From assembly GCA_964418945.1 (NCBI GenBank), contig CAYQNR010000004.1, forward strand, positions 2,156-66,155: 64,000 nt of DNA, in the 5' to 3' direction. The translations under genes were made by a program, and so were the position numbers. The notes below the pieces were generated by a model, which saw only the letters and a program-made list of their open reading frames with translations, was not told where the DNA came from and did no database searches. Positions within the stretch are counted from its first letter, which is position 1. Every line of letters starts with the position of its first letter. Of this stretch, positions 24,891 through 55,354 are shown piece by piece. This stretch comes from an uncultured Desulfobacteraceae bacterium. GTDB taxonomy: Bacteria; Desulfobacterota; DSM-4660; Desulfatiglandales; HGW-15.

Positions 24891-26990
24891 CTATATCTGA
24901 TTACCAATTCTCCAGCCTGCGGCGATTGCATCAGGTATTATCGCGGGATCATCGCAGTCACCGATTGCGTAGAGCTCTGGCACCTTTCCTTGAAGTTCTT
25001 CATATAAGCCGACATTTCGCGCAAATCCAATAGGTATGATATGATCTGCTGCTAATGTTTTTTCCTCACCTTCTTTAGTGATTATTTTTAATCCTTCTTT
25101 ATTGATTTCGACCAGTTTAACTCCTGCATATGTTTTAACACCCTTTTTCCTGAACCATATTAACAGACGATTTGTAAATTCGGGGATAAGCATGTCTCCA
25201 AGCTCATCACTGGGTTCAACTATGGTTACCTTTCGCCTTCTTTTAGCCATGAATTCACCTAACTCACATCCCTGAATGGCGCCACCTATTATAACAACCC
25301 TTTTCCCGATAGGCTTAAAGGGATTCCATCCAGCGGGAGTCCATATTTTAGTAAACCAATTTGCGAAACTCGGACTAAAGAATCTGAGAACAAATTTTAC
25401 TAACCTATACAGAGTAGTTGTTTTAATGACATTAGGGCTGTCAAGTCCCGGTATATCCGGATACTTTGGCACAGCTCCCAATGCAACAACCACGGCATCC
25501 GGTTTCTCTGCGAGTATTTTAGACGAATCAGGCATTTTTCTCAGATGGACCTTAACTCCAAGCTTTTTAAGCTGGGTCTTAAACCACTTTACGATTTCTG
25601 GAAGGTCTTCGAGCTCAGTACCTTTTATAGCTGCTGCACATGGTAAATTTCCACCCAGGTATGGTTCCATTTCATACAATGTCACATCATGGCCTCTGAT
25701 GGCACTGATTCTGGCTGTCTGCATCCCAGCGGGCCCGCCGCCGATCACTACTACTTTTTTCTTTTTGTCTGCTTTGTCCACTTCGTACTTATCAGTGCCG
25801 AAAGACGCATTTATACGGCATTCCCTAGGTTCATTATATATTTTGGCGCAGTTAACGCAATGGGTACACGGCACTATATCTTCAAGACGGCCTTCTCTTG
25901 CCTTGTTTGCATACTGCGGATCCGCAAACACTCGCCTGTTAAAACCGATAATGTCAGCCTGGCCTTTTTGAAGGACCATTTCCGCGGTATCAGCGGTGAA
26001 TCCGCCTGTAGTCATAATGGTTGGCTTGGTGACAGTATTTTTAATTACTGCGGAAGACGGTACGGTGATCAGATCCCCATAATTGCTAAAGTCCATCTCC
26101 TCTGGTAGATCTTCCTTGGGAATGCAAAGTTCAGGGTACCAGAGTACATTATGAAGGTAAGAACCCTGGTGATGCCCAACCAGATGATTCCTGACCTGCA
26201 AAGAATCAACACCGATTGATTCGTATATCTTCGCAATCTCAATACCTTCTTCCCAGGTTATTCCCTGATCGCCTAAACCAAATTCATAGGCGTTCATAAG
26301 TACCTGGACCGGCCAGTCTTCTCCACACCGTTTCTTGATCTCTTTTACGGTGTTAACAACGAATCTCATCCTATTTTCCCACGACTGTGGGCCGTATTCA
26401 TCATCACGCCTGTTCCAGTAACGTGAAATAAAGGTATGGAAAAGATGATCAGCACCGGCGTTTATTTCAACACCATCAAAACCGGCCTTTTGGACTCGTA
26501 CCGCACAGCTGGCGAAATGGTCGACCAACCATTCTATCTCTTCAACGCTTAATGCCCTTGGCGGCTCTTCTTCATGAACGTCATATTCCGATGTGAAATG
26601 AACAGCTGAAGAGGCAACACGATCTGCTATGAATTGATATTCCTTCCCCCACGGGCCGCGGTGATAGAATTGAACAAATGCCTTACAATCGTGTTTATGA
26701 ATAGCTGCAGTTAACTCAGAGATATTGTCTATATACATGTCATTATCAACGCGAAACCTGCGATCGCCTTCTTCGAGCAACGGCCATTCCATGGCAGGTG
26801 TTTCAACTATAATAAGACCGACACCGCCTTTAGCTACAGCTTCATAGAATGCCAAGGCGAGGCTGCCGACACGCTTCTCTCCTGATTCGAAAAAATATGT
26901 CTGTGCTGCCGTTTTAACAAACCTGTTTTTTAATTGAACCTTTCCTATATGATATGGTGAAAAAAGTTTTTCGTATTTATTCCTTGCCAC
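24891..26990 (-). CDS. OYE-like FMN / Fe-S / FAD-NAD(P) oxidoreductase, paralogue 2
   Basis: OYE N-terminal domain, CTHCVNCAKIYNEPREC cluster, and GGGPAG fold. GTG start with GGAGGA upstream. Confidence 0.88.
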   Translation of the reverse strand: MARNKYEKLFSPYHIGKVQLKNRFVKTAAQTYFFESGEKRVGSLALAFYEAVAKGGVGLIIVETPAMEWPLLEEGDRRFRVDNDMYIDNISELTAAIHKHDCKAFVQFYHRGPWGKEYQFIADRVASSAVHFTSEYDVHEEEPPRALSVEEIEWLVDHFASCAVRVQKAGFDGVEINAGADHLFHTFISRYWNRRDDEYGPQSWENRMRFVVNTVKEIKKRCGEDWPVQVLMNAYEFGLGDQGITWEEGIEIAKIYESIGVDSLQVRNHLVGHHQGSYLHNVLWYPELCIPKEDLPEEMDFSNYGDLITVPSSAVIKNTVTKPTIMTTGGFTADTAEMVLQKGQADIIGFNRRVFADPQYANKAREGRLEDIVPCTHCVNCAKIYNEPRECRINASFGTDKYEVDKADKKKKVVVIGGGPAGMQTARISAIRGHDVTLYEMEPYLGGNLPCAAAIKGTELEDLPEIVKWFKTQLKKLGVKVHLRKMPDSSKILAEKPDAVVVALGAVPKYPDIPGLDSPNVIKTTTLYRLVKFVLRFFSPSFANWFTKIWTPAGWNPFKPIGKRVVIIGGAIQGCELGEFMAKRRRKVTIVEPSDELGDMLIPEFTNRLLIWFRKKGVKTYAGVKLVEINKEGLKIITKEGEEKTLAADHIIPIGFARNVGLYEELQGKVPELYAIGDCDDPAIIPDAIAAGWRIGNQI

Positions 26991-28063: not shown

Positions 28064-28984
28064 ATGCAAAAGAGAATTACTCGAAGGGATTTTATTAAGA
28101 AAGCCGCTGTTGCCGGAGCCGTTGTAACAACTTCAAAGGTACTTGCGGATCCAGCCCAGACAAAAAATATACGAGGAGGTGATCAGATGGCGATTTCAAC
28201 AGCAACATTCAACAAGTATGGCACCGATCTCGAGAAAATGTTGCTATTGAGCACATACCCCATTGCGATAAAGATGCTTGAGACCGAATCCCAAATCCCC
28301 AAGGGCGCCATACGGCCCAAAAAAGACCGGGGCGAGCATTATGCCATGTGCCAGGCCTTTGCCCTTGCCCGCCGCCAGGGAATGACATTGGCCATGTTCA
28401 TCGAAGATCATTGGTGCTTTGAACCCATAATCTCCTACGGGCTTGTGGAAACGCCTCAGGATTATCTGGATGGATTCACCAATTCGTTTTTCATGGCCGA
28501 TAAAGAAGCGGCAGCGAAACATGCGCGCGGAATGACCCGCCTGCCCGTCGGGAAGTATGCCGGAATGGTTTTGGGCCCACTGAAAACGGCGAATTTTGTT
28601 CCTGACCTCACGATGATTTATTCCAATACCGCACAGCTGCGACATTTACTCCTTTCTTTGAGATACCTCAATGGGACCCAGGTGACTTCAACCATTGATC
28701 CCATAGGATCCTGTGTCCATTCGGTCGTTCCCTCACTTTTAAATGATGAATGCCACATTACGGTGCCTGATCCCGGTGATTTCGAGCGCGCCGGGGCTGG
28801 GGATGATGAAATGATTCTCACGGTTCCTACCAGAAGATTGAAGGAGCTGATGGATGGGGTATATCATTTTGACAAAGCCATGGCATTTAGAAACTTTAAC
28901 TATTCAATACAACCGGACTTCCAGCAGCCTCCGTTCTATGAGGAATATTTTAGAAGGTGGGGATTGGATGCGCCTAAGAAGTAG
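28064..28984 (+). CDS. DUF169 family protein with in-frame Tat-like N-terminal extension
   Basis: RITRRDFIKKAAVAGAVVTTSKVLA lies at the N-terminus. An alternative ATG 28187 has a strong AGGAGG 7 nt upstream. The body is homologous to the fragment at 2-265. Confidence 0.8.
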   Translation: MQKRITRRDFIKKAAVAGAVVTTSKVLADPAQTKNIRGGDQMAISTATFNKYGTDLEKMLLLSTYPIAIKMLETESQIPKGAIRPKKDRGEHYAMCQAFALARRQGMTLAMFIEDHWCFEPIISYGLVETPQDYLDGFTNSFFMADKEAAAKHARGMTRLPVGKYAGMVLGPLKTANFVPDLTMIYSNTAQLRHLLLSLRYLNGTQVTSTIDPIGSCVHSVVPSLLNDECHITVPDPGDFERAGAGDDEMILTVPTRRLKELMDGVYHFDKAMAFRNFNYSIQPDFQQPPFYEEYFRRWGLDAPKK

Positions 28985-29022
28985 GAGTTAAAGGCTTAGT
29001 AGCATGTAACGAAGTTTTGAAA

Positions 29023-30255
29023 TTAGTAACGTCCGTATTCACGGGTAAAATCTATCATCGCCTTCAGGTTTTCGGGCCTGACTTCATCTACAACCGATGC
29101 GGGTCCTACAATCAGTCCGCCGTCCTTTCCAACGACATCGATCAGCCATTTGCAGTATTTCTTTACTCCCTCCACATCGCTTGCCTGCAGCAGCGAGGAC
29201 GGTACGTTCCCGGATATGCAGACGTGTCCTCCCAGAACTTCCTTCGCTTTAACTATATCCGTGTGGTCCATGCGGGCGATCACTTTACCTTTGGGCAGTT
29301 CTCGAAGGTATTCCAGGCGTTGGGTATAGTCGCCCTCAAAAAAGATTTCAGGCGTGTACCCGGCATCCACCAGCGCGTGGACTAATTTAAGGAGGTCGGG
29401 CCAGTAGAATTTTTTAAACTGATCCAGCGACATAAAGCCGTCTGCGCCTCGATGCAGGGCCATGAAGGTGGTCGTGAAACCGTCGGGTTTCGGAGCGGCT
29501 GCGACGGCTTTGAGGGTTTGATCGGAGATTCTTTCAATCGCGGCCAGCAGTTTGTCTGGTCGTCGGTACATGTCGAGCATGGAACCCCGCATACCTCGCA
29601 ATAAGTCGGAAACCATATCAAATGGCACCGGCCCTCCGACCATGGTCATCCGACACGGGAAACCGTTTTCATTTAAAGCGTCAAACATTTCCTGGTTCTG
29701 TCGCATCCATTCCACCGCCTCATGTGAAATCGAAGATAGCGTTTTGAGCATCTCGGCAAATTCCGGCAAGGCAAAAAGATGCAAGGGAAGCATAAAATGC
29801 ATGGAATGAAGCGGGGGCAAAGCTGATAGCGGCGCCAGTAAGCCGTACATTCTCGGCAAAAGGGTCCGAATGGTGAAATCCGACTGGTCATTTATAAAAT
29901 GCTCGTATTCTTCCGCTTTCATGTACTCGCCTTCAACAAACTGGTGCGAACGGTTCTTTCCCACTCCGTGCCCGGGCCAGACGAAGAATTTTTGATCCAG
30001 TGTCTCAAGGACCCTGCCGGATTCATTGGGGAAGAATTCGCACCGGTCCGGTTGAAAATAGTGTGCCGTTTTCAGATAGGCTTCTTTCCACTTGGGGAAG
30101 TCGTAATATGCATCACTATAAGTAATACCTGTAAACCTAGCCGGTAGGTAGCTTAAATGAACCGAGGTCGGAACCCTGTCCGGTATCCTTAGTTGAACGG
30201 CATCGATATACCTTTTTTCTCTTTCGCGATACAGTTGTTCCGTAACCTTGTCCAT
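29023..30255 (-). CDS. Uroporphyrinogen-decarboxylase (URO-D) family protein (MtaA/methyltransferase-like), paralogue 1
   Basis: 410 aa, URO-D-fold-like, homologous to 45462-46805. Confidence 0.75.
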   Translation of the reverse strand: MDKVTEQLYREREKRYIDAVQLRIPDRVPTSVHLSYLPARFTGITYSDAYYDFPKWKEAYLKTAHYFQPDRCEFFPNESGRVLETLDQKFFVWPGHGVGKNRSHQFVEGEYMKAEEYEHFINDQSDFTIRTLLPRMYGLLAPLSALPPLHSMHFMLPLHLFALPEFAEMLKTLSSISHEAVEWMRQNQEMFDALNENGFPCRMTMVGGPVPFDMVSDLLRGMRGSMLDMYRRPDKLLAAIERISDQTLKAVAAAPKPDGFTTTFMALHRGADGFMSLDQFKKFYWPDLLKLVHALVDAGYTPEIFFEGDYTQRLEYLRELPKGKVIARMDHTDIVKAKEVLGGHVCISGNVPSSLLQASDVEGVKKYCKWLIDVVGKDGGLIVGPASVVDEVRPENLKAMIDFTREYGRY

Positions 30256-30285
30256 TCTTACCTCTCCAGATGTCTTTTTAAGTGG

Positions 30286-32349
30286 TCACCCAAGCCTGCC
30301 TTTATTTTGGAGTGTATCAGCCACTTTCTTCAATCCCATGGCTTCAAGTGTGCTTCTTTTCGGCCAGCCGCTATCACTGTTCCAACCTTCAAAATCATAG
30401 AATCTGGTTTTCCATTCCTCAAACCTATTCCTATCCAGGACCCTGCCTACACAAGGGCTGTAGCTCCAGGCACCGTTCTCATAGACCGGCAGGTAATAGG
30501 GCTCTTCCGTAGGAACATTGTAGACATATCCAGCCAATACTTCCATATCGCGATGTCTCCCCTGCATCACCCATATGGCCCTGTCCAGGTTCCATATCTT
30601 GCGTCCGATCTCGATCCCCTCGACAAAACTCAAATTCTTTCCGGTAACCGCATTAAAAAACCTGGATTCCCCTTCCGGTGTTGGCCCGGACTTATCAGGA
30701 CTATTGGGGGTAAAAAAACGAGGCCAGACCCAATCACAGAAGAGGATAGACTGTATCCAGAATCTGGTGTAGTGCCTATGCCAGGCTATTGTTTTAACCC
30801 TATGGTCCGAATAGATTCCTGTGGGGCCTTCACTGTAGTCGAACATAAAGGGATCGCCTGCATATGGAGCCACACCCGAAGATAATTTCTCTACTGCTTC
30901 TTCAGCAGAAAGCACAGGATCCATATCTGCGCTTTTTGTCCAAGTTGGCATATGGTGTATGGCCATATTGAAGCTGTGCTCATTAATATCTCTTTCTCCC
31001 AGGATGGAACCATAGCTCCACTCCACCTCGAGCCTTGGGTCATAATGCTCAAAATATCCCCAGTTCGGCAGGTTCAGGAGTCCGCTTTCACTATCCTCCT
31101 TATATCGTCCCCATGTGTCTGCCGCTCTGGCCACGCCTCCGCTCAGGGCATCGCCAATCCCCTCCCTGTTGGCGATTTTCTTGACAAGTGCATGAATGAA
31201 TTCAACCCTGCCGAACAACTCCATTGGCAGGTTACTTTCAATCTTCTTTCCGGGCCCCAGTATTCCCTGTTTATAGAGTGCCTGGATATATGAAAGCATC
31301 GGACGCATTTGAAAGGCATTTATGCCGTAATACTGAACCAGGTCGCAAGCAATCTCCTTATCCTTTCGAGTCCCCTGAAGAGCCATAGCCGCCCAGATGG
31401 TGTCTTCACAGCTCAACTCATTACTGACACCGCCGGCCAATCGCATGCGGCAGGCCTTAGGGCATCCGGCACAGGCCTGGGCGCGTGCCGGTTCAATTGG
31501 GAACTGCTTGTTCACGAAGTTATCGTCCCCAGGATTATCGTTGACGGGTGAAAAAACAAATACATCCGGAGGTTTCTCCATCCTGGGATTGTCAACGTCA
31601 TACTCGAATTGCCGATACCACAGTCGGGCTTCCATAAGTGCATTTGGATTGGCTATGGGTAAACTTCCAGTACCGATCACGCTTATAGCCTTAAGCTTCT
31701 TTGATCCGAAAACTGCTCCAAAACCACCCTGCCCCGCGCCATTTCCCGCATCATGAATCAAACAGGCAATCCTTACTTGATTCTCCCCCGCAGGTCCAAT
31801 GCACAGTACTGCGGGTTTCTGGGTCGTATAGTGATCCCCGATATCCAGCCATTCGCCGGACTTCGCGCCAGCTGTCACCCGCCTCCAGATTTCCTCCTGC
31901 GTCTCCATGACATCCAGACCCCACAGCGACCCGGCGGGTTCAATCTTTGCTTTATCATCAATGATATTGATCCACACAGGCTCATCGGATGCCCCTTCAA
32001 CGACAACTCCATCCCATCCGGCATATTTAAGCTGGGCTGAAAAGCGTCCTCCAAAATTGCTGCGGGTAAACCATTCCACAGGGTATCCCTGAGGCCCTAA
32101 TCCTTGCACCTCGCATCGTCCCGCAGCGGAAGGCACAATTACACCGGAAAAAGGACTTGCGATCACAGTAACGACATTTCGGGGATCAAGGGCGTCAAAG
32201 GGCAACTGATCACCGATCAGGTCCCAGAATATGGCGGAACCGATTCCGTGACCACCGCCATACTCTTCGTATTGTTCAGTCTCCAGGGTACTGATTGATT
32301 TTTTGTTTAAGTCTACCCGTAAAATCTTTCCGGTATATCCATATGCCAT
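30286..32349 (-). CDS. Aldehyde:ferredoxin oxidoreductase (AOR) family tungsto/molybdo-pterin enzyme
   Basis: Typical AOR N-terminus MAYGYTGKILRVDLNKK...GGGHGIG and C-terminus ...GWNSDSGWPKRSTLEAMGL. Confidence 0.88.
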   Translation of the reverse strand: MAYGYTGKILRVDLNKKSISTLETEQYEEYGGGHGIGSAIFWDLIGDQLPFDALDPRNVVTVIASPFSGVIVPSAAGRCEVQGLGPQGYPVEWFTRSNFGGRFSAQLKYAGWDGVVVEGASDEPVWINIIDDKAKIEPAGSLWGLDVMETQEEIWRRVTAGAKSGEWLDIGDHYTTQKPAVLCIGPAGENQVRIACLIHDAGNGAGQGGFGAVFGSKKLKAISVIGTGSLPIANPNALMEARLWYRQFEYDVDNPRMEKPPDVFVFSPVNDNPGDDNFVNKQFPIEPARAQACAGCPKACRMRLAGGVSNELSCEDTIWAAMALQGTRKDKEIACDLVQYYGINAFQMRPMLSYIQALYKQGILGPGKKIESNLPMELFGRVEFIHALVKKIANREGIGDALSGGVARAADTWGRYKEDSESGLLNLPNWGYFEHYDPRLEVEWSYGSILGERDINEHSFNMAIHHMPTWTKSADMDPVLSAEEAVEKLSSGVAPYAGDPFMFDYSEGPTGIYSDHRVKTIAWHRHYTRFWIQSILFCDWVWPRFFTPNSPDKSGPTPEGESRFFNAVTGKNLSFVEGIEIGRKIWNLDRAIWVMQGRHRDMEVLAGYVYNVPTEEPYYLPVYENGAWSYSPCVGRVLDRNRFEEWKTRFYDFEGWNSDSGWPKRSTLEAMGLKKVADTLQNKGRLG

Positions 32350-32416
32350 TGATTAATACTCTCCTTTGGGGAACGTTGGCATCTTGAATCACGGCGCAAC
32401 TCAAGCTAATGAAGCT

Positions 32417-32599
32417 CCCCGCCGCAAGCGGCGGGGTTTCAAGCGGAATTCCGCCGAAACCACCCGCCTTTCCATCCTCCATAGCCCGTCCTCCGCAGTG
32501 GCCTGCTACGGAGGATGGACAGGCTACTGCGGAGGACGGGCGCCCAGTGAGCTACGGCGCGGTTCGCTACGCCATTCATCCCTGTGGCAAGCCACAGGG
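32417..32599. repeat. REP-like array of perfect GC-rich hairpins
   Basis: CCCCGCCGC-aa-GCGGCGGGG; CCCGTCCTCCGCAG ... CTGCGGAGGACGGG; CCCTGTGGC-aa-GCCACAGGG. Confidence 0.7.
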
Positions 32600-32702
32600 T
32601 ATTCTGGCGAAGGCGAATAAACGCCTATTCTTTTACACCTTCCACTTCGGATTTCAGATCCTTGTTTTCTTGAATCAGCTTGTGGACATATTTGGGTTTT
32701 GC

Positions 32703-34217
32703 CTAGTTAAGGTTGTCCAAGGCTTGGTGGTAGACATTGGTCATAACATGCCCCCCTAAGTACAGACCTACTTCACCCACAACAGTATCCAGGGATCCGC
32801 ACTGCGCATCTCCAAGATTCCGGCTTTTCTCTCCGTATGTATCCTCGATATGCCAGGACCGGATAACCTTGCCGTCAAATTCATCCACTACAATCTTAAA
32901 AAGGCCTCTGGGTCCGTCATAAGAATTGGTTTTCGAATCAAGGGTGATGGCTTCCGCGTTTTCGATGGCCAGACCGGTCATCATATAACAAAGCGGTCAG
33001 ATATAGGCGGTCTGAAGTATGAATCTTGTATCTTCACTCCAGGGATTTCGCAATTCCATCTTTCTTACATCCTCATATATCAGCAGGTCCACTTTACCAC
33101 CGTAGAAGGAGCTGACCTCATTCATCTGCGACACCGGCACAAAATCTCCCGCTTCGTTCATAAGCTTCATGGGACCCGGTCCGAAGGGCATATCAAATTT
33201 TGTATTGATCTGTACACGTATGTTTTCGTAATCCAGAGACAGGGTCGGCCGTATGATGGTGCTATGCTCCAGGATATGCTTTTGGTTCCTGTAAATATCC
33301 AAGGTCAGAGGCCCCAATGTCTTCTCAGCAAGCACATTGCCTTTCGAATCCAGCAGATTGATCCCGACCGTTCCGAGTTCGGGATCGACCGACAAGACCT
33401 TGACTCGGTATTTACCGGCCTGTAAGGTCTGGCCGGCGGCCACATCGTTGGCAACTATCGGTTTATCATAACTGGTTTTGAACCAGATCATGTCCAGGGC
33501 TCCAGCCTCTTTGATCTTTATTCCCTGTGGAGTTACACTGTCCACAACAACAAAGAATGTTGCGGATGCGTCAAAAGGATCACCGAAGAACTGCAGAGGC
33601 GGGGGAGTGATCATTCCTTCACCCTGCAGATAGCCGTAGGCGATAGCATTTCTTGACCTGGCATATCCTGAGGGAATAACAACGGACAAATCCCATGTCC
33701 TATAACCGTTGGCAAAAACAAATTGAAAAGCGGCCGACCTTACATTCAAAAAGCCTTCCATGGAAAAAGTATTGGCAAGAGCAATCGTGCCCTCTTCACA
33801 TAAAGGTACGGGTCGCTTCCCTTGTGCTACGATAAAGTCTTTCTTAATGGCCATGGCTTCCTTCTTCCCCAGCCAAATGGCTTCCTTACCGGCGATAATA
33901 AGTGGTTCTCCGTTCAGATTAGAAAATCCCTCTCCTCCAAAGGTGAAATAGATTAAACCGCCCGGAGGAATTCTAATCTTCCCATCTTCGATGCTACTCT
34001 GACGGATCATAAATCCTTCCGTAATCCCTCTTTCAATGCCATGGCGGTTGGGCAATAACTTTGGAGCCAACAGCTCGGGCATCTCCTCCGGCGCAACGAA
34101 AGATGCATCTGGAGAAGGTAGTTTATAGTGAGCGTTTTCTTCCGCATTTCCTGGGAGCGTGAATGCCAGGAGAAAAACTACGGACAAGACAATATGCAAT
34201 AGTCCTCTCTTTTCCAT
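32703..34217 (-). CDS. Exported protein, candidate selenoprotein (in-frame TGA at 32997-32999; motif U-P-L-C)
   Basis: ORFs 32997-34253 and 32703-32984 share a frame and are separated by TGA plus 4 codons. ATG 32984 has no SD. AAGGAGG precedes ATG 34217, and a signal peptide is present. Confidence 0.55.
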
Positions 34218-34345
34218 ATCTTGCCTCCTTGTTTTGGGGGTTTGTATTGTCATAAGCGGCTTATATTCAATTCAGATCAGGAGTATTGGCATATACTCCC
34301 GGTCTGTAATATTAACGGCTACAGGCATTGCCTTTGCCGGGGGGT

Positions 34346-34642
34346 CTAAAGCTGATGGACTTTTCCTGTTTCTTTATTCTTCCAGTACCCCCTCAGCGCC
34401 AGCGGCCAGTTAAACTGGATAGCCCCGGGTACGGGGCAGTCATTGACGCAGCAACCGCCGTACCAGCATTCTTCAGGGTGCAGGATAATAGGCGGTTTGC
34501 CCTTCTGCGGATGGGGTATAAATACATCTATCTGGCATGCTTCCACGCAGACGTTGCACCCGGTACAAACATCCTCGTTGAATAATACCGGCTGGCTGGG
34601 TGTGGCAACATTGGGAATAGCGAATGTTTCTTCCTTGGACAC
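34346..34642 (-). CDS. 2x[4Fe-4S] ferredoxin-like protein (AprB-like partner)
   Basis: CTGCNVCVEAC and CWYGGCCVNDCP motifs. Start moved to GTG 34642 (TAGGAGG 6 nt upstream). ATG 34732 lies inside the upstream gene and has no SD. Confidence 0.8.
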   Translation of the reverse strand: MSKEETFAIPNVATPSQPVLFNEDVCTGCNVCVEACQIDVFIPHPQKGKPPIILHPEECWYGGCCVNDCPVPGAIQFNWPLALRGYWKNKETGKVHQL

Positions 34643-34685
34643 TTTATGCCTCCTAAAATGAAGGTTGCTTCTTTCAATCCAAAAT

Positions 34686-36632
34686 CTATTTTCTTCGGTA
34701 AACACCGGTATAGTCTTTATTGTGAGCTTCATACTGCTGTTGCATATCGCCCCAGAATGTAATAGGAAGCTCGCCGATTTTTACCTTATCGTTTTCCAGT
34801 TTGACGGTCAGGTACTTGTTCCACTCCGGCGGATCGACCGCAGGGTAATCGATCCTGTGCAGATTCAAAGGGATGCTGCTGGCCTTACGCGCCCTGGAAG
34901 CATGAATGATGATCTTCGCATAATTCAGAAGACTGATGTCCTCAAGACTGCGCATCAGCTTATGGGGATCAAGGGCATACAGGGTAGGCACGGTCTCTTC
35001 CTCAATCTTCTGCAAAGCCTCGAGCCCTATCTGGAAAAGCGATTCGGTCTTGAATTCACTGACATAATACTGCATCACCCTGGAAATACCGGCGTGCAGC
35101 TCTTTCCATTCAATACCGCTGCTACGCCTCACCGGTGCATAAACTCGCGATTTTTCAACTTCAATCTGGTCACGGGACATTTTGGATTCGCTAATTTCCT
35201 TGGCATAAGCGGCGGCTTTTCGGCCCGCGTACCGGCCGGTTGCGGCAGCATAACTATGATCCTCGGGAGAAAACATCTGGGTCCCGGCGGCGTACAGCCC
35301 GTCCAGAGATGTTTTCAGGTTCCAGTCCACCAGCAGGCCTCCGCCATAACCGGCTTCCCGCCACTGGGGCAGGCTTTGTCCTTCGATAAACTTGTAGCCC
35401 TGAAGCAGGTCGCGGCCGGGATCGAAGCCAGCCTGGTTGTAAGTGTCAATAATGACCCTGGTGGTGGATTCTTCACCAAGCATCAATCTCCAAGTGACGT
35501 TTCTCTCCACTTCCGGCATGGAAGGAAAATCGGCGTAAAAAGGCAGGGAGTATTCGCCTTTCATAATCCCTTCATGGATTTTGGCGGTTACTTCGGGAGT
35601 CGGCACCATTGCGCCGGCATCTTCCCAACCCTGTATGGGATAGGGAAGCCTCTTTCCGTTGGCGTCCACGATAGGAACATTCTCGTAGCTGGCGTCCCCG
35701 CCCCCGGTATACCACTTATGTTTCAACCCGGTGGCGATCATAATAACTCCGGTGGCTTCCATGTTGGTCAGCTCCGCTCCGGCCCTCCAGGCCATTACCG
35801 TTCCGTCGCCGGAAACCGTGCGGGGAATCATGTTGGAATATCCTCCATGCTCCATACTCATCAACCATATGGATCCGGCCCCGGCAGTGGCTAAAATGGT
35901 GGCCTTGGATCTAAAAATCATGAATTCGCCGGTACGGTTGTTCAGGCCGGTAGCCCCGATCACCCGGGCGCCCTGGATCCCGTTCTCGGTGAGCAGGCCG
36001 GTCCCCATCACCCGGTCGAAGATCTTAACCCCCAGGCGCTCGCATTCCTTTTTAAGAGCGGGTTTAAAGGTACTCCCCCAAATCCGTATCACCACATTGT
36101 TCCGTTTGTCCGGGGGATTAAAATTGGGTTCTCCCATTCTGGGATCTGGCAAATAGCTGTGAATGGTGCCGTAACGCGGGGAAATCATGAACTTGGTCTT
36201 ATCGTCTCGTTCTTCGGCACCGACGTATTCGTCGTCCGTATCCCTTATTTTGCCTCCCATCTGCTCCATCTCCAGCAAAGTGTCAAAATTCTCCCGGCAC
36301 TGGATCTGGATGCCAATACCGTTGCTATAGGGCCGGTCGGCCATATGCCGCGCCCAGTCGTCCGGAGTAACCCTGGACAGAGGATTGGCCGGAGCATCGC
36401 ACCAGTGGTCGCATCCCGGCCCACCGGCACCGCTTCTGACGGTATCGCCCTTTTCCACTAAAGCCACATTCAGCCCTTGCCTGGCCGCGCTGATCGCCGC
36501 CCAGCATCCGGCGATACCTCCTCCTATCACCAAGACATCGGTCTCGATTTCCTGTTCCTCTTCAAAACGGATAGGATAGGGCCAACTGGGAGGCCGACCT
36601 TCCTCCTTTAAGTAATCATGCCAAGTAGTCAT
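34686..36632 (-). CDS. FAD-dependent oxidoreductase, AprA / fumarate-reductase flavoprotein superfamily
   Basis: DVLVIGGGIAGCWAA dinucleotide fold and AprA/SdhA-like length and pattern. It is paired with the ferredoxin. Confidence 0.82.
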   Translation of the reverse strand: MTTWHDYLKEEGRPPSWPYPIRFEEEQEIETDVLVIGGGIAGCWAAISAARQGLNVALVEKGDTVRSGAGGPGCDHWCDAPANPLSRVTPDDWARHMADRPYSNGIGIQIQCRENFDTLLEMEQMGGKIRDTDDEYVGAEERDDKTKFMISPRYGTIHSYLPDPRMGEPNFNPPDKRNNVVIRIWGSTFKPALKKECERLGVKIFDRVMGTGLLTENGIQGARVIGATGLNNRTGEFMIFRSKATILATAGAGSIWLMSMEHGGYSNMIPRTVSGDGTVMAWRAGAELTNMEATGVIMIATGLKHKWYTGGGDASYENVPIVDANGKRLPYPIQGWEDAGAMVPTPEVTAKIHEGIMKGEYSLPFYADFPSMPEVERNVTWRLMLGEESTTRVIIDTYNQAGFDPGRDLLQGYKFIEGQSLPQWREAGYGGGLLVDWNLKTSLDGLYAAGTQMFSPEDHSYAAATGRYAGRKAAAYAKEISESKMSRDQIEVEKSRVYAPVRRSSGIEWKELHAGISRVMQYYVSEFKTESLFQIGLEALQKIEEETVPTLYALDPHKLMRSLEDISLLNYAKIIIHASRARKASSIPLNLHRIDYPAVDPPEWNKYLTVKLENDKVKIGELPITFWGDMQQQYEAHNKDYTGVYRRK

Positions 36633-36671
36633 TTTTTCGATCTCCTTAATAAAACAATAGGGATTGATTTA

Positions 36672-38375
36672 TTAACGCCAGTCATCGATCAGGACGCTTT
36701 GACGGGGCGCCATTCCTCCATAACTCCAGTAATTATTATTAGATCCTCCGGTGACCACAATGTTTATTTGCGGACGAAACCATGACGGCATCTTCGCCTG
36801 GGGAGGACCGCCTTGTCCTTCCGGGCGCGCCGCAAGGAATTTTTCAAGCTCCTCGACCGTTTCGAAGCCTTCTTCTTTCATGAAATTGGCGACCGGCGGA
36901 CTCAGCACCGCCATAGCGCCGAAAAGCATATCCTGGTCGTTGACGATCTTTTTGAGTGTCCCGGAAAAATCCATCTCTTTTTCCCAAACGCTGTATTTCG
37001 AGTTTTTCGCCGACAGGATCCCCCACCCCTCGCAGAGCGTCACAACGCTGTCAGACGGCTTGAAACCTCTCCGCACATGGAAAGGCTGCCACGGAGACTC
37101 CTCCTCGTTTTCGGCCATGATTACATTGTTCCAGTTCATGGGATTGCCGATAACACCCATATAGGTAGTCCCCACTCTGCCGCAGTTGCCGGCGTTGATA
37201 GACAGCAGGTTCCATGCCCTTCCTATGGTGGAATTGGCCTGGCTGAATGGCCCTAAGGCGCCTATGCCGTAATTGAGGCCTATTTCGTCGCGTATGGGCC
37301 CGTTAATAATCAGACCTTCGGTAAAGGAGTTGTCGGAAACCGAAATAGCCTCTTTCCCGGTCGAGGCCACCGCCAGGATTACCGGAAGGTATTCCGGTTT
37401 GGCACCGGCCATGACAGCGTTGATGGCAACCGTTCTTACCGTATAAGACCAATGTTCGAAAACTTCCACATTGTTTTCTCCCGGCATGGCTGTATGCGCC
37501 GCCATTTTCCCGACCACCTCATCAGGATGGTGACTGGTCCCTTTCAGCATCTCGGCGACCTTCTCTTCGGTCGGCAGGATGATCGGCATATAATCGGTCA
37601 TCCTCTTTTCCAGAAACATCTGCTGCAGATTCTCCGGAGTATCGGTGAAACGCTCCGGCCCTGTCTCTGGTTCTATGGTTCCGGTCATCTTTTCCTCGGC
37701 GGTCAACGGTTTGGCGAGATTCTCCACTATTTCCTGCATGATCATTTTTCCACTTATAGGACTCTCGCTCACGATATCTTTCCGGATCTGTTCTGCCTTT
37801 TTCCCCCATACCGGCGAAATGAGATAGGTAACGCGAAGGTTGGGCATTCCTTTCTGTATGGTATGGTGGGTCTTTACCTGTTCGTAAAATGCGGAGATGA
37901 TCAGGGGAACGGTGGGAACACCGAGCTTCGATTCGATATTTATGCAATGGCCAACGACCGCGGCCACACAGAGGCTTCAATGCCCCATTCCCATAATAAC
38001 CGCGTCGGCCTTTTCCTTAATTTCCGCCCATAAGGCCGGATCTTCCGCAGTGAATCCTCCGCCACTCATCCTCTTATAAATAGTGCTAACTTCAGGCATG
38101 TTTTCCTTGAACCACGCCTGCATTTCCCCGAGAAGGATATCGGTTCCCAGGTAGCCATCATTAACCAGATAGACCGTCTTGCCGTCCAAAGAATCCAGCC
38201 GGGGAGCCATCTGTTTTAGCTGGATGGCAGGCGGTTGCCCCCTTGGATTGAGCACGGTAATTTGCCGCTCGCTGGCTTGCCCTTGCGCCAGAATCGGCGT
38301 ATTAAGAACCGGATACATACAAAACAAGCTCAGAAACAACAAGGCGATTAGCGTTATCGAAATGTGCCGCCTCAT
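36672..38375 (-). CDS. Candidate selenoprotein: UGSC-like domain (H-U-S-L-C, TGA at 37977-37979) fused to a ~430-aa domain of unknown function
   Basis: ORFs 37977-38495 and 36672-37967 are in frame and separated only by TGA. AGGGAGGA precedes ATG 38375. A hairpin with a GGUC loop follows the TGA. Confidence 0.6.
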
Positions 38376-38403
38376 TTCTCTATCCTCCCTGTACTTATAG
38401 TTG

Positions 38404-38461
38404 TTGATAAAAATTCGCTTTTTAATGAACGGAGTATAGAAGATTTGCAGTTGTATGTCAA
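38404..38461 (-). promoter_or_regulatory. Promoter plus leader box (copy P3)
   Basis: Read on the minus strand: TTGACA, 17-nt spacer, TATACT, 9 nt, then AAAAAGCGAATTTTTATCAA. Confidence 0.65.
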
Positions 38462-38775
38462 ATAAACTCTGCCGCACATTTCGGCTGGAAATCACAAGCT
38501 GGATTTAAGGGCTCTAATCAGCAAGGGAACAGATTCAAATACTGTAATGTCTATGACGGCATCATCAATGATATCAAATATCTATGCATCTGTGACCCCA
38601 CCGCCAGTGTCATGGTACGAATGCTATGTTCCCTGGTCAAAGGTAAGAGTATAAACGAGGCGGAACCTCTCACCGGAAAATCTTTTTCACAGGGGATGGG
38701 AGGCGGTATTATTCTTAATTGACAAATAGATGCATAAGTGATATTTGAATAAAAATATGTATTGTTTTCTATAAT

Positions 38776-38793
38776 ACAAAGCAGTTTTATCAA
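38776..38793 (+). promoter_or_regulatory. Leader-box-like motif upstream of the Mop gene (copy P6, not position-locked)
   Basis: ACAAAGCAGTTTTATCAA lies directly after a TATAAT (38770-38775). Its spacing differs from the other copies. Confidence 0.3.
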
Positions 38794-38863
38794 TATTTTC
38801 TCTTCATTTACATTTACTTTTTCAATTTCAAATTTAGGATAAACATGAAAGGGGGCCAAGCAA

Positions 38864-41518
38864 GTGAAAACCGTAACCTTAACTGTGAATGGAGTAAAAA
38901 GGAAGGTTGATGCCAGCCCGGACCTGGTGTTGCTCGACCTGCTGCGCGAAGAACTCGACCTTACCGGGACCAAGCAGTCCTGTGACCGCAAAGGCCAGTG
39001 CGGTGCCTGTACGGTAATCGTCGATGGCAAAGCAACGCGTTCCTGTTTGAAGAAAGTAGTCGACCTGGAGGGAGCGGATGTCATCACTGTAGAGGGCCTG
39101 GGCACGCCTGATAATCCCCACCCCGTCCAGGAAGCCTTTGTCCTGACAGGCGCTATCCAGTGCGGCTACTGCACGCCGGGCATGATTATGGCCACCAAAG
39201 CCCTGCTCGATCAGAATCCCGATCCTGACACAGCTGCGATCAAGAAAGCGCTGGCACACAATCTTTGCCGCTGTACCGGCTACGTAAAAATAATCGATGC
39301 CATAAAGTTAGCCGGTAAATTCCTGCGGGGGGAGACCACACCGGCGAAGGTCCGTGCCAATATCGATAAAGATAAGATGATTGGTGAATCCCATCCCCGT
39401 CCTTCTTCCATGCTTAAAGCCTGCGGCCTGGCTAAGTTCGGCGGAGACTATAAAATGGATAACATGCTGGAAATAGCCGCGGTGCACAGCACTGAATTCC
39501 ATGCCATTATCAAGTCCATCGACACTTCTGCAGCAAAGGAGATGCCGGGTATGGTCGGCGTGATGACGGCGGAAGATATTAAGGGCACCAACCGCCTCCC
39601 CTTTATCGCCCTAGACCAGCCCGTGCTCTGTGAGGACAAGGTAAGGGCCTATGGCGACCCGCTGGCTATTGTCGCTGCGGAGACCAGGGAACAGGCACGA
39701 GCCGCTGCCGCCGCCGTAAAGGTTACTTACGAAAAACTACCGGTGATGAAAACACCGGAAGAAGCCCTGGCACCGGCCGCGGTGCAGATTCACCCCCATT
39801 CGCCCAACCTCTGTTTCCAGCAGCCCCAAATAAAGGGCGACGCTGACAAAGCGCTCAAAGACGCGCACGGGGTAATCGAAGCAGACTTTTCCACGCAAAT
39901 GAACCACCAGTCACCCCTGGAACCGGAAGCCTGCTTCTGTTATTTAGACGGTAATGAACTGGTGGTTATCGGGCGGAGCATCATGATTCACGCCCATGCC
40001 GGCATGATTCAGGGAGCCGTCGGCGCGGAAAAGGTTCGCTATATCGAGCCCTACTCCGGGGGCCAGTTCGGTATTAAAGCCAACATCTCATCGGAAGGCA
40101 TTGCCGCCGCGGCCGCCATGCATTTTAAGCGTCCCATCCGCTATATACCCAGCCTGGCGGAATCGTTCCTTATTACATCCAAACGCCATCCCTTCTCCAT
40201 GAAGACAAAACTGGCCGCTGATGCAAAAGGGAACCTTACCGCTTACTTTAATGATTTTATCATGAACAAAGGCGCCTATTTCCTGCTTGGCCCCATTATG
40301 GCGGGGCGCGCCCTGCACATGCTGAACGGAGCGTACAATATACCTAACATTTCCGCTTTAGTTAAACTGGTTTATACCAATAACGGAAGCGGCGGTGCTG
40401 CCCGGGGAGCCGGACCGCCCCAGGTCATGTTCGCACTGGAATCACTGATGGATATGATGGCGGAGAAGCTGGGCATGGACCCGCTGGAATTCCGCAAGAT
40501 GAATGCCCTCAAACCGGGTCAGACACGCTCCACGGGTGCTCCTATAGACCAGACCTCCTTCCCGGAGCTGTGCGATGATATCAGACCGCACTACGAACGC
40601 GCTAAGAAGGATGCCGCTGCCTTCAATAAAAAGGGCGGCAAGATAAAACGTGGCGTGGGTATCGCCTGCATGTCCTTCGGCATTGCCGAAGCCGGCGACC
40701 GTGCCGATAATGCCGTGGAGATAAATCCTGATGACACTGTTACCATTTATGCCGCCATCGCCGACCCCGGTGAAGGCAACGACTCTATGCTTTCGCAACT
40801 GGCAGCCCAGGTTCTCGGTCTGCCTCTGGAAAAGATAAAACTCTATACTCGCGACACGGATAAGACTGTAGCGGCGGGGCCCTCTGCCGGCAGTCGGCAG
40901 ACCTATATGGGCGGCGGGGCCCTGGTCAACGGACTTGAAAAAATGGCTAAGGCCATGGAAGAAGCCGGCTCCAAGACCTACTCCGGACTCAAGAAGGCCG
41001 GCAAACCCACCCGCTATGAGGGCACGAAGCAAATTGCGGGTAAAGACGAGTTCGATCCCAAGACCGGGCAAACCGACTCTTTTGACTCCCAGGTACACAA
41101 CATCCAAATGGCAGAGGTTGAAGTTGATACAGAGACAGGCAAGACCAAAGTTCTAAAAATGACCACTGCCGTTGACGCTGGCCCCATTATCCACCCGCAG
41201 AACCTGGAAGGTCAGTTGGAAGGCGGTATGGACCAGGGTATTGGCTATGCTTTAAGGGAAGAATTCGTTCTTGGCGAGACCAAGGACTGGATAACATTCA
41301 AATTCCCCACCATTGCAGATTCCTTCGAGGTGGAGTTCGTCAAACGTGAGACTCCCCGCATCAGAGGCACACTAGGCTCTACCGGCATCGGCGAGATGAC
41401 GATGGTTTCTACCGCGCCAGCAGTTACAAACGCTATCTATAACGCCTGCGGCGCCAGGATTCACCACCTACCCGCCACTCCGGATAAAGTAAAGGCTGCA
41501 ATAGCCGCTAAAACATAA
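38864..41518 (+). CDS. Molybdopterin aldehyde oxidoreductase, [2Fe-2S]x2 + Moco fusion (Desulfovibrio gigas Mop-type architecture)
   Basis: N-terminal CoxS-like 2Fe-2S motifs (CDRKGQCGACTV; CGYCTPG; CRCTGY) run continuously into a CoxL/XDH-like Moco domain. No FAD domain is present. GTG start. Confidence 0.9.
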   Translation: MKTVTLTVNGVKRKVDASPDLVLLDLLREELDLTGTKQSCDRKGQCGACTVIVDGKATRSCLKKVVDLEGADVITVEGLGTPDNPHPVQEAFVLTGAIQCGYCTPGMIMATKALLDQNPDPDTAAIKKALAHNLCRCTGYVKIIDAIKLAGKFLRGETTPAKVRANIDKDKMIGESHPRPSSMLKACGLAKFGGDYKMDNMLEIAAVHSTEFHAIIKSIDTSAAKEMPGMVGVMTAEDIKGTNRLPFIALDQPVLCEDKVRAYGDPLAIVAAETREQARAAAAAVKVTYEKLPVMKTPEEALAPAAVQIHPHSPNLCFQQPQIKGDADKALKDAHGVIEADFSTQMNHQSPLEPEACFCYLDGNELVVIGRSIMIHAHAGMIQGAVGAEKVRYIEPYSGGQFGIKANISSEGIAAAAAMHFKRPIRYIPSLAESFLITSKRHPFSMKTKLAADAKGNLTAYFNDFIMNKGAYFLLGPIMAGRALHMLNGAYNIPNISALVKLVYTNNGSGGAARGAGPPQVMFALESLMDMMAEKLGMDPLEFRKMNALKPGQTRSTGAPIDQTSFPELCDDIRPHYERAKKDAAAFNKKGGKIKRGVGIACMSFGIAEAGDRADNAVEINPDDTVTIYAAIADPGEGNDSMLSQLAAQVLGLPLEKIKLYTRDTDKTVAAGPSAGSRQTYMGGGALVNGLEKMAKAMEEAGSKTYSGLKKAGKPTRYEGTKQIAGKDEFDPKTGQTDSFDSQVHNIQMAEVEVDTETGKTKVLKMTTAVDAGPIIHPQNLEGQLEGGMDQGIGYALREEFVLGETKDWITFKFPTIADSFEVEFVKRETPRIRGTLGSTGIGEMTMVSTAPAVTNAIYNACGARIHHLPATPDKVKAAIAAKT

Positions 41519-42735: not shown

Positions 42736-43704
42736 TTATTCTTCTTCTTGCACCCAGGGAGAATCGTGCTCACCGCTGAGGCAGCAGACAATAAAGGCGT
42801 AGGGCTTATCCATCCACCTGGTGATGAGGGGGAGATGGGGAAAGCCGGAAGGGCAGACGGCGACAGTAGGCGTGTTGAAGACATGCCTTTCGTATTCCTT
42901 GCCCATAGCCAGCTCCTGCTCACACCCCAGAAAATTCAGGTCATCCGGGTCAAGGCCGAGAAAGACCAGTATTTCCTCGGAAGGATGGTAGTGGGCTTCG
43001 CCGCCGCGGTGCCATATACCTGAGCCGGTGTAAAATCCCCAGGTGAAATTGATTTCAAACCCCTCCAGGTCTTTACCGTAGAGCCAGACAAGTTGGTCAG
43101 CGTTCCCCGGCCCCAGAAGGCCCACCTGGCTCATATCCATTTCAGAATCAGGATGCTCCTTCTTGAACTCCGCCAGCAGACGCTCATCCTTGGCAATAAT
43201 TGACATCCTGACCGGTTCGAAGCCGGGACCAAGCGGTTTAACCAGGTGCCCATACTTGGAACCCGTTGTTTTAGCCTCTTCCGGGAGCGGTTCAGCCTTG
43301 TAGTCCGCGGCCAGACCGATATGGTAATGGGCAATAGGTTTATCTACTTTTCTCACCGTAACCGGGCCGTGCGGTGTCCCTTTGGGGACGATGATTACCG
43401 AAGGTACGTTAAAGATATGCTCCTCGCGTTCCTCGCCCAGTTCTACCGATATTTCGGCACCCAGATAGGTGATATCGGTGTTATCGGTGCCGGCAAAAAC
43501 CAGGCACTCGTCGTAGGGGTGAACCAGCGCCCCTTTAGCGGGGTGAAGCTTGCTGGCTTTTTTAACAAACCCGTACGAGAAATTGGCGTTGAACCCTTCC
43601 ATATCCTTGCCTTCCATCCATATCCACGGCTCGGGATATAAACCTTCCGGCGGTTTTTGGACCAGTAGAGATTTTATCAGATGGGCATACTTTTTCTCGG
43701 CCAT
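42736..43704 (-). CDS. Bicupin protein, uncharacterised family (paralogue 2)
   Basis: Carries the same signature as 19547-20461. It is a tandem duplicate of 43744-44718. Confidence 0.75.
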   Translation of the reverse strand: MAEKKYAHLIKSLLVQKPPEGLYPEPWIWMEGKDMEGFNANFSYGFVKKASKLHPAKGALVHPYDECLVFAGTDNTDITYLGAEISVELGEEREEHIFNVPSVIIVPKGTPHGPVTVRKVDKPIAHYHIGLAADYKAEPLPEEAKTTGSKYGHLVKPLGPGFEPVRMSIIAKDERLLAEFKKEHPDSEMDMSQVGLLGPGNADQLVWLYGKDLEGFEINFTWGFYTGSGIWHRGGEAHYHPSEEILVFLGLDPDDLNFLGCEQELAMGKEYERHVFNTPTVAVCPSGFPHLPLITRWMDKPYAFIVCCLSGEHDSPWVQEEE

Positions 43705-43743
43705 TTTAATAACTCCTCCTGAATAATGATTTCTCCTTGCCGT

Positions 43744-52224: not shown

Positions 52225-52260
52225 ACGAAGAATCTTACCCGCCTCCGCAGTATGCTACGG

Positions 52261-52368
52261 CCTCCAAACCGTGGAGGAATGCGGGTATCCTCCAAATCCT
52301 TGGCTAAGGAAGACTGAAGCTTCGGCGGGTTACGCTGCACCAAAGGTGCCACGGGTTCCTGTCCGTGG
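52261..52368. repeat. REP-like hairpin cluster between the GRE and its activase
   Basis: CCTCCA-aaccg-TGGAGG; GCACC-aaa-GGTGC; CCACGG-gttcctgt-CCGTGG. The segment CCTCCGCAGTATGCTACGG is related to 32491-32515. Confidence 0.6.
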
Positions 52369-52422
52369 GGCTCCACTTTTGCCCGGTATCTTAACTGATG
52401 TGGAAATTTAAGATGCAGATGT

Positions 52423-52448
52423 AAGGGCGGCGTTATCGTCGCCCTTTT
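52423..52448 (+). terminator. Terminator/attenuator-like hairpin between the GRE and its activase
   Basis: AAGGGCG-(10 nt)-CGCCCTT followed by TT. The T-tract is short. Confidence 0.4.
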
Positions 52449-52468
52449 GGTAAAAGGACTATAGTAAT

Positions 52469-53422: not shown

Positions 53423-53484
53423 GTTTTCTCTGCATTGATATTTTTACGCCTGTTAGGTTGGATTATTTCTCGGAGGTGTTGGCC

Positions 53485-54315: not shown

Positions 54316-54346
54316 TGCGGTTTTCATTGTTATATATCCAGATTTC

Positions 54347-55333: not shown

Positions 55334-55354
55334 TATTTATCTAATTTATTCAGA

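Follow-up and report, generated by a model that had tools for sequence, protein, structure and literature searches.

The window analysed here is a 64,000-nt stretch of DNA from an uncultured Desulfobacteraceae bacterium (contig CAYQNR010000004.1), within which we examined a 9.4-kb cluster at positions 29023-38461. Six genes lie there on the minus strand, from 38375 down to 29023, and encode, in this order, a fusion selenoprotein, a FAD flavoprotein, a ferredoxin-like subunit, a second selenoprotein designated UPLC, an AOR-family oxidoreductase and a protein of the UroD superfamily (Table 1). The genes, their order, their strand and a promoter upstream had been described in an initial annotation of this DNA, and that description matches what we found. 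The same annotation tentatively took the six genes for an operon encoding a selenium-dependent reductase complex, which neither the synteny across genomes nor the predicted localisation of the products bears out. Based on the comparison with about 125 related loci, including 80 flavoprotein loci that were fetched, we favour another reading, with a probability of roughly 0.6: the cluster would consist of four or more modules, each inherited separately and now lying side by side, and not of a dedicated selenium-dependent reductase.

Following the order of the genes, the intergenic gaps measure 39, ~43, ~128, 353 and 30 nt. The sigma-70-like sequence upstream of the fusion gene matches at 11/12 positions and is the top match of this type within 28900-38900; such matches numbered 10 in this 10-kb region against 11.2 in shuffled sequences, i.e. 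not above chance, and it is its position and the quality of the match that make it a promoter candidate. The gap between the UPLC and AOR genes is highly structured: the stretch 32350-32705 (356 nt, corresponding to the 353-nt gap together with the stop codon of UPLC) has a folding energy of -155.7 kcal/mol (z = -6.3) and contains several perfect hairpins. This region had been named a REP array. However, three of the hairpin sequences had no second copy in the window, with up to 3 mismatches allowed, so that the label, which implies a dispersed repeat, is not established. No T-tract terminator was found at the hairpin cluster on the minus strand. The element may serve to end or to stabilise a transcript, and it marks a boundary between modules. 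An Rfam scan of the whole window gave no match, and hence no known model of a selenocysteine insertion sequence (SECIS) or a riboswitch; no tRNA genes were found in the window either. The sequence features that bear, indirectly, on the question of a single transcript are the sizes of the gaps, these hairpins and a conserved leader of the UPLC gene, described below.

Table 1. Features of the cluster and of the surrounding window (Sec, selenocysteine; OYE, old yellow enzyme)
Feature	Position	Strand	Details
Promoter candidate, sigma-70-like	38461-38433	minus	TTGACA, 17 nt, TATACT; upstream of the fusion gene
Fusion selenoprotein	38375..36672	minus	UGSC domain + 'Unknown_1' type; 567 codons, Sec at codon 133
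Sec codon (TGA) of the fusion gene	37977-37979	minus	Context GMGH-U-SLC
SECIS-like hairpin of the fusion gene	37944..37969	minus	10-37 nt after UGA; GGUC apical loop invariant
FAD flavoprotein	36632..34686	minus	648 aa; FAD_binding_2 + Succ_DH_flav_C
2x[4Fe-4S] ferredoxin-like beta subunit	34642..34346	minus	98 aa from GTG 34642
Conserved 5' leader of the UPLC gene	34218..34265	minus	Includes AAGGAGG ribosome-binding site
UPLC selenoprotein	34217..32703	minus	406 aa + Sec + 97 aa
Sec codon (TGA) of the UPLC gene	32997-32999	minus	Context AYI-U-PLC
SECIS-like hairpin of the UPLC gene	32964..32982	minus	GAUGaCCGGUCUGGcCAUC; GGUCU apical loop
Cluster of GC-rich hairpins	32417..32612	minus	Several perfect hairpins within the 353-nt UPLC-AOR gap
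AOR-family pterin oxidoreductase	32349..30286	minus	687 aa; AFOR_N + AFOR_C
UroD-superfamily protein	30255..29023	minus	410 aa; CdmB/MtvB (methyltransferase I) branch
Two 'enoate reductase' type genes	22065-23996 and 24891-26990		OYE + Pyr_redox_2
Two tandem-cupin proteins	42736-44718	minus	322 and 324 aa; each an internal duplication of a ~160-aa cupin-like domain
Second UroD-like gene	45462-46805		54-62% identical to Dehalococcoidia copies linked to the flavoprotein/ferredoxin pair
MFS transporter	47788-48954		67% identity to a counterpart upstream of the L066 flavoprotein
Two glycyl-radical enzymes + two activases	49807-57925		Best models sulfopropanediol/hydroxyproline dehydratase, far below cut-off

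Selenocysteine codons and predicted export of the two selenoproteins

Both selenoprotein genes contain an in-frame TGA, at which automatic gene callers split them. In the fusion gene, TGA was present at the same codon in 31/31 related loci, with conserved residues on both flanks, and in the UPLC gene it was present in 6/6 loci and followed by a conserved continuation of 97-119 aa; the frame is the same throughout, across protein identities of 47-100%. In the fusion, the Pfam UGSC domain (PF24696; 78.5 bits against a cut-off of 25; residues 41-199) spans the codon. Contiguous homologs with Cys exist for both proteins (proteins and loci of the comparison set are given with P and L numbers). Cys aligns with the UPLC Sec in P0156-P0158 and in ~187 proteobacterial proteins, and P0156 (526 aa) shows 38% identity over 109 aa (E 1e-16). 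For the fusion, an exhaustive profile search retrieved 4013 cluster representatives, contiguous CxxC and non-redox forms included; P0285 (CSTC), P0293 (CPGC) and P0307 (CSTC) are full-length CxxC homologs, and four distant homologs carry U-PGC, U-SSC, U-DGC or U-WGC. The split gene calls would agree with the TGAs being ordinary stops, and each selenoprotein being two genes or a pseudogene, but given that the codon is always TGA, that a known domain and contiguous Cys homologs run across it, and that the downstream part is as conserved as the upstream part, with no requirement for a start codon or ribosome-binding site, this explanation is hardly tenable. On the strength of this conservation we regard both as genuine Sec codons, in agreement with the earlier proposal of the two UxxC proteins as selenoprotein candidates.

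A SECIS-like hairpin follows each of the two UGA codons. Counted on a hand-drawn structure, pairing in the fusion hairpin held for 85% of cells over 19 distinct sequences, versus 18-61% with the partners slid; compensatory changes were limited to 2 pairs and covariation was modest. RNAalifold did not recover the local hairpin from the alignment of the fusion SECIS, and single-sequence folding downstream of both UGAs gave energies no better than those of shuffled sequences. The UPLC hairpin is conserved in 6/6 loci, with an A.C mismatch that becomes G-C in L085 and U.G in L089, and its loop resembles that of fdhF.

Both selenoproteins begin with a basic region, a 15-residue hydrophobic core (Kyte-Doolittle hydropathy 2.6-2.7) and an AxA-type cleavage site, and in the fusion these features are conserved in ~25 homologs (...AQAQG). 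No comparable N-terminal signal was found in the flavoprotein, the ferredoxin, the AOR or the UroD-like protein. We predict from these sequences that both selenoproteins are exported and that the four enzymes are cytoplasmic. Export had previously been assigned to UPLC, correctly in our view, but to UPLC alone, whereas the fusion also carries an N-terminal signal peptide. With the selenoproteins exported and the enzymes lacking a signal, a direct thiol/selenol redox complex between them is topologically unlikely.

The UGSC family, together with a 'UGSC/Unknown_1' fusion, has been on record since 2008 (Zhang and Gladyshev, 2008; PMC2398784). As in that family (PF24696, NF041046), the UGSC domain of the fusion spans the Sec codon, shows the UxxC redox motif and would adopt the thioredoxin-like fold proposed there, and Sec forms are far more numerous than Cys forms; as in the published fusion, a long C-terminal domain of unknown function is present, possibly 'Unknown_1' itself. 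The motif is U-S-L-C here instead of U-G-S-C, and the clade to which the protein of the window belongs has a cleavable signal peptide, which is missing in the members P0285, P0293, L028 and L076. The score against NF041046, the equivalog for stand-alone UGSC proteins, was 51.2 bits, below the cut-off of 125, which indicates a divergent, fused member of the family and not the stand-alone protein of ~147 aa. The ~370 residues after the UGSC domain gave no family match. Their AlphaFold2 model was mediocre (pLDDT 62), and a Foldseek search against the PDB gave nothing below E 0.3; fumarate hydratase and 'Toblerone' cyclic-amide hydrolase were considered for this domain and dismissed, since the Foldseek matches were weak. 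P0339 (717 aa), P0336, P0349 and P0398 are made up of two copies of this domain and lack a UGSC domain, so that it can be considered an autonomous module. The fusion, which we call module M1, would most likely function as a stand-alone extracytoplasmic selenol/thiol oxidoreductase.

UPLC has no match in Pfam or NCBIfam and apparently constitutes an undescribed, rare selenoprotein family. In 5.8 billion protein clusters, its Sec clade is represented by 35 close relatives; its Cys clade has ~187 members in Alpha- and Betaproteobacteria, all of them annotated as hypothetical. The structure was approached through the AlphaFold2 model of the Cys homolog P0157 (pLDDT 82.6), which is 26% identical and stands in place of the protein of the window. 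This model is all-beta, and its sole significant match in the PDB was the DUF1608 domain of a Methanosarcina S-layer protein (Foldseek E 6e-6, probability 1.0). According to the model, UPLC would share an all-beta structure with the DUF1608 domain of MA0829 of Methanosarcina acetivorans (3u2g), although sequence identity is ~10% and the TM-score is low (0.17-0.27); both proteins have a signal peptide. The proteobacterial homologs have a C-terminal membrane anchor, whereas the Sec clade does not. To our knowledge, S-layer proteins are not known to contain a Sec or Cys site.

The UPLC gene is preceded by a leader of ~45 nt (AGCCGCTTATGACAATACAAAyCC...AAGGAGG) that is conserved in five genomes, in different contexts and phyla. 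It was observed before the UPLC homologs in L084, L086, L087 and L088, where the sequence further upstream is unrelated, and it had no match in Rfam; a promoter and a regulatory RNA element are both conceivable roles. UPLC (module M3) would amount to a one-gene cassette with its own leader, coding for an exported all-beta selenoprotein that resembles an S-layer domain, judging from the model of the Cys homolog. With regard to its other end, the gene stops at TAG 32703-32705, a position where five relatives have TGG (Trp) and continue for ~25 codons. The 25 codons past the TAG in the window (32625-32705, minus strand; AKPKYVHKLIQENKDLKSEVEGVKE) are in frame and conserved, and the identical contigs L081-L083 give the same call of a 93-aa open reading frame (ORF). 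Either a nonsense mutation arose very recently and has become fixed in the population, an option suggested by that shared ORF call, or the TAG is read through or recoded.

The flavoprotein/ferredoxin pair and its recurrent partners

The longest ORF of the ferredoxin gene, which encodes 8 Cys, starts at 34732. The likely start is GTG 34642, six bases after AGGAGG, giving the 98 aa that are usual among its orthologs. The flavoprotein has 234 relatives in species-representative genomes, 70-93% identical, which span Desulfobacterota, Acidobacteriota, Dehalococcoidia, Clostridia, Spirochaetes and Planctomycetota. The initial annotation placed it in the AprA/FrdA superfamily, with a 2x[4Fe-4S] ferredoxin as partner. 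Both assignments hold: the flavoprotein has the FAD_binding_2 and Succ_DH_flav_C domains, its closest solved relatives are the alpha subunit of the reductase for 3'-phosphoadenosine 5'-phosphosulfate (PAPS) from Methanothermococcus thermolithotrophicus (MtPAPSR; E 2e-25) and AprA, and the ferredoxin is an AprB/PAPS-reductase-beta-like subunit, closest to MtPAPSR beta (8a8o_C, E 4e-6). Within the superfamily, however, the flavoprotein falls outside bona fide AprA and FrdA, with all NCBIfam equivalogs far below their cut-offs: 194 bits versus 587 for PRK08275, 93 versus 642 for aprA (TIGR02061), 131 versus 557 for NF005331 and, as the best score among fumarate reductases/succinate dehydrogenases, 97 versus 567 for TIGR01812. 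The flavoproteins of the latter enzymes carry the covalent-FAD histidine in an R-S-H-[ST] motif; the flavoprotein of the window reads VRSGAGG at this site, with no His.

Like dissimilatory AprAB (1jnr, 2fja) and the AprAB-type MtPAPSR (8a8o; PMC10322725), the two genes form an adjacent pair coding for a FAD subunit of the fumarate reductase superfamily and a small subunit whose eight Cys would hold two [4Fe-4S] clusters, and the FAD-binding and C-terminal helical regions align. The alignments with 1jnr and 8a8o are nevertheless restricted to three partial stretches of ~25-30% local identity, while the capping (substrate) domain, at ~residues 295-428, is not alignable; the flavoprotein is also ~75 aa longer than MtPAPSR alpha, and the curated cut-offs are missed 3-7-fold. 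No sat, qmo, dsr or adenosine 5'-phosphosulfate (APS) kinase genes lie near the pair here, and neither sat nor qmoABC nor dsr was found among the annotated recurrent neighbour clusters of the 80 flavoprotein loci. The uncharacterised 'AprAB-like' paralogues defined by DiSCo, from Clostridia, Deltaproteobacteria and others, have been proposed to participate in sulfur assimilation (PMC8477390). Compared by description, they have a similarly short beta subunit but sit in sulfur-assimilation neighbourhoods, which is not the case of this pair. These best PDB matches and the short beta subunit could suggest that the pair is an assimilatory APS/PAPS reductase of the type of the DiSCo proteins or MtPAPSR, and that the cluster serves sulfur assimilation. 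We consider this improbable in view of the partial alignment, the scores against PRK08275 and aprA, and the recurrent neighbours, which are UroD-like, cupin-like, AOR and peptide-type ABC genes and none like sat, cysC or asr. Since the capping region is unrelated to that of AprA/FrdA, the substrate of the pair is expected to be something else.

By analogy with these enzymes, the pair (module M2) would be a cytoplasmic two-subunit enzyme of APS/PAPS-reductase-like build. Through its 98-aa subunit, with two [4Fe-4S] clusters, electrons supplied by an external donor would reach the FAD in the 648-aa subunit, and a small substrate would be reduced or oxidised there. The flavoprotein gene is tandemly duplicated (flavoprotein-ferredoxin-flavoprotein) in L036, L037, L045, L057, L073 and L075, as well as in L033 and L063. 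These loci belong to Desulfatiglans-type and some other genomes, and a MATE transporter and an AOR often follow.

The AOR and the UroD-like protein form module M4. The former scored 183.5 bits with AFOR_N and 111.1 bits with AFOR_C, matched 1aor at E 1.7e-39 and had the YdhV-like PRK09849 as its sole equivalog-type match (238 bits, cut-off 868); relatives with 41-57% identity lie close to the flavoprotein in two loci (L014 and L018) and to a fusion homolog in a third (L084). The closest solved relative of the UroD-like protein is CdmB (9rui, E 5e-35), with HemE scoring 20.5 bits versus 303. CdmB is a corrinoid-dependent methyltransferase I (PMC13222342). With CdmB, MtvB and OdmB, the UroD-like protein shares the TIM barrel of the UroD superfamily, a length of ~410-450 aa and an N-terminal extension, but no gene for a corrinoid protein or a methyltransferase II is adjacent to it, here or in the linked loci, and it falls in one of the 'uncharacterised clades' mentioned in the same work. 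As a contrast, L088 contains a classical Pterin_bind / B12-binding / URO-D trio.

UroD-like genes were present in 12-14 loci of the pair. In seven of them, in at least four arrangements, they are directly adjacent to it (L025, L027, L038, L045, L054, L076 and L078, with 38-47% identity to the protein of the window), and L038 and L045 read flavoprotein-ferredoxin-UroD-AOR. The commonest neighbour of the pair elsewhere is a family of ~160-aa cupin-like domains without a Pfam model, found in 16/80 loci, 8 of which have it no more than 1-2 ORFs away from the pair; the two tandem-cupin proteins of the window gave no match in Pfam, NCBIfam or the PDB. Other recurrent neighbours are AORs, short-chain dehydrogenases/reductases, IclR regulators together with peptide-type ABC transporters, MATE/TRAP/MFS transporters, OYE-type ene-reductases and glycyl-radical enzymes. 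Acidobacterial neighbours are housekeeping or unrelated genes, e.g. glucose-6-phosphate isomerase and amidohydrolase.

Several of these families are represented elsewhere in the window (Table 1). The glycyl-radical enzyme at 55355-57925 is 87% identical to one in the Spirochaetes locus L039, where the flavoprotein is ~5 kb away, and the enoate reductase gene at 22065-23996 is 51% identical to a gene beside flavoprotein, ferredoxin and cupin in L034. The functional island seems to extend well beyond the coordinates originally assigned to the cluster. Because AOR, UroD-like and cupin-like proteins recur near the pair and are also encoded in the window, gene context supports grouping the pair with them better than with the selenoproteins. 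M2 and M4 would probably participate in one cytoplasmic catabolic route, with the cupin-like proteins, the second UroD-like gene, the ene-reductases and transporters elsewhere in the window as likely partners. We infer that the substrate would be an imported organic compound, the best guess being plant-derived aromatic or phenolic acids. No literature was found on the combination of flavoprotein, UroD-like protein and AOR. The idea that a glycyl-radical sulfolyase produces sulfite for the AprAB-like enzyme was set aside as speculation; the glycyl-radical enzymes of the window and of the loci score best against sulfopropanediol dehydratases, but far below cut-off, at 567 versus 1000 bits.

Conservation of the arrangement and origin of the cluster

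Flavoprotein and ferredoxin genes were adjacent in 77/80 flavoprotein loci. UPLC was present in 0/80. Just two of these loci, L001 and L002, have a fusion with at least 89% identity next to the flavoprotein; in L028, L051 and L076, less similar copies (37-41%) were located at up to ~7.4 kb from it. A metagenome scan with the fusion returned 36 loci. Wherever fusion identity was 90% or higher and the flank was sufficient, flavoprotein and ferredoxin followed, whereas neither did in loci with 87% identity or less, where the neighbours differ. The diverged fusion homologs are surrounded by unrelated genes, such as those for an M23 peptidase or a PNPOx-like protein. UPLC stands alone in six other genomes (L084-L089), and in the metagenome-assembled genome (MAG) that holds L001 it is found on another contig. 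Conservation of synteny had been proposed as a test of the six-gene set; the set turned out to be mostly not conserved, and the sole occurrences of the whole arrangement were in L081-L083, identical contigs that come from the same population.

These data bear on the model of one operon, according to which the selenoproteins would act as thiol/selenol partners of a selenium-dependent reductase that receives its electrons through flavoprotein and ferredoxin and whose product is passed on to the AOR. The common strand, the mostly short gaps and the one strong promoter candidate would fit such a model, as would the confirmed UxxC motifs and the presence of the first three genes together in close relatives. 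It is nonetheless very improbable, considering the conserved signal peptides on both selenoproteins and their absence from the enzymes, the structured 353-nt gap between UPLC and AOR, the occurrence of UPLC on its own and never in a flavoprotein locus, the lack of linkage of the fusion below 89% identity, and the ~70 loci with flavoprotein and ferredoxin but without any selenoprotein.

A narrower unit could also be envisaged, in which fusion, flavoprotein and ferredoxin are co-transcribed and functionally linked across the membrane, UPLC and the AOR/UroD genes being unrelated. The cytoplasmic enzyme might, for instance, make or consume a reactive species of sulfur, selenium or a metalloid, and the exported selenoprotein would deal with it or detoxify it. 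The 39-nt gap and the order of these genes are kept in L001, L002/L090/L096, L092, L104 and L110, that is, in every locus with a fusion at least 89% identical and a flank long enough, and the nearest solved relatives of the enzyme act on sulfur oxyanion esters. However, identities of at least 89% in all these loci mean that shared ancestry explains the order. Moreover, no membrane-spanning carrier of electrons or substrate is encoded between or beside the genes, and where a distant fusion homolog does occur in a flavoprotein locus (L028, L051, L076), it lies 2-7 kb away and on either strand. We therefore consider this possibility unlikely, albeit less so than the full operon.

Our preferred reading, a juxtaposition of separately inherited modules in which M1 and M3 would be neighbours by an accident of genome history, has several points against it. 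One is the layout itself, with all six genes on one strand, gaps of 30-128 nt except for the single one of 353 nt, and a single good promoter match in the cluster region; judged from these features, it is possible that some or all of the six genes are co-transcribed. The retention of the fusion-flavoprotein-ferredoxin order with its 39-nt gap in the loci listed above is another. Likewise, the Acidobacteria MAG locus L084 (1085-13452) holds, within 11 kb, a fusion homolog (41%), an AOR (57%), UPLC (77%) and a DUF169 gene; order and orientation differ from those of the window, in a faint echo that is hard to account for by shared ancestry alone. As for the supporting data, signal peptides were judged by sequence features and not by a trained predictor, the UroD-like enrichment was counted without a genome-wide background and many of the Dehalococcoidia loci share ancestry, and the aromatic or phenolic guess draws solely on the types of neighbouring genes and the habitats of the source genomes.

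A broader proposal, tentative and with the odds against all its parts holding together, would be that the pair represents a new enzyme class in the AprAB/fumarate-reductase superfamily, shared by anaerobes of at least six phyla with 70-93% identity. It would work with UroD-family proteins devoid of corrinoid partners, the cupin-like family and AORs in an undescribed, horizontally spread catabolic route, possibly for plant-derived aromatics; UPLC, for its part, would be the first case of a selenoprotein with a cell-surface fold of the S-layer type.

In terms of selenium biology, the locus adds the apparently undescribed UPLC family, which has Cys forms in aerobic Proteobacteria, and a clade, predicted to be exported, of the long-known and uncharacterised UGSC fusion family; both point to selenol chemistry outside the cytoplasm. 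For anaerobic metabolism, it reveals a highly conserved, widely transferred two-gene AprAB-like enzyme with defined recurrent partner families, which makes the pair a tractable target for heterologous expression and substrate screening. With respect to genome scanning, it calls for caution, as same-strand, short-gap clusters in catabolic islands can be mosaics, and predicted localisation and cross-genome synteny should be checked before a complex is proposed.

One of the loci that keep the fusion next to the pair, L002, shows two further peculiarities. An IS91-like transposase ORF (12357-13463) immediately follows the ferredoxin gene and precedes a TRAP transporter, in line with the modular reading. 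Although the locus bears the label 'Bacteroides sp. SM23_62', its genes show 91-92% identity to their counterparts in the Desulfobacteraceae-like window, which suggests mis-binning or a recent transfer.

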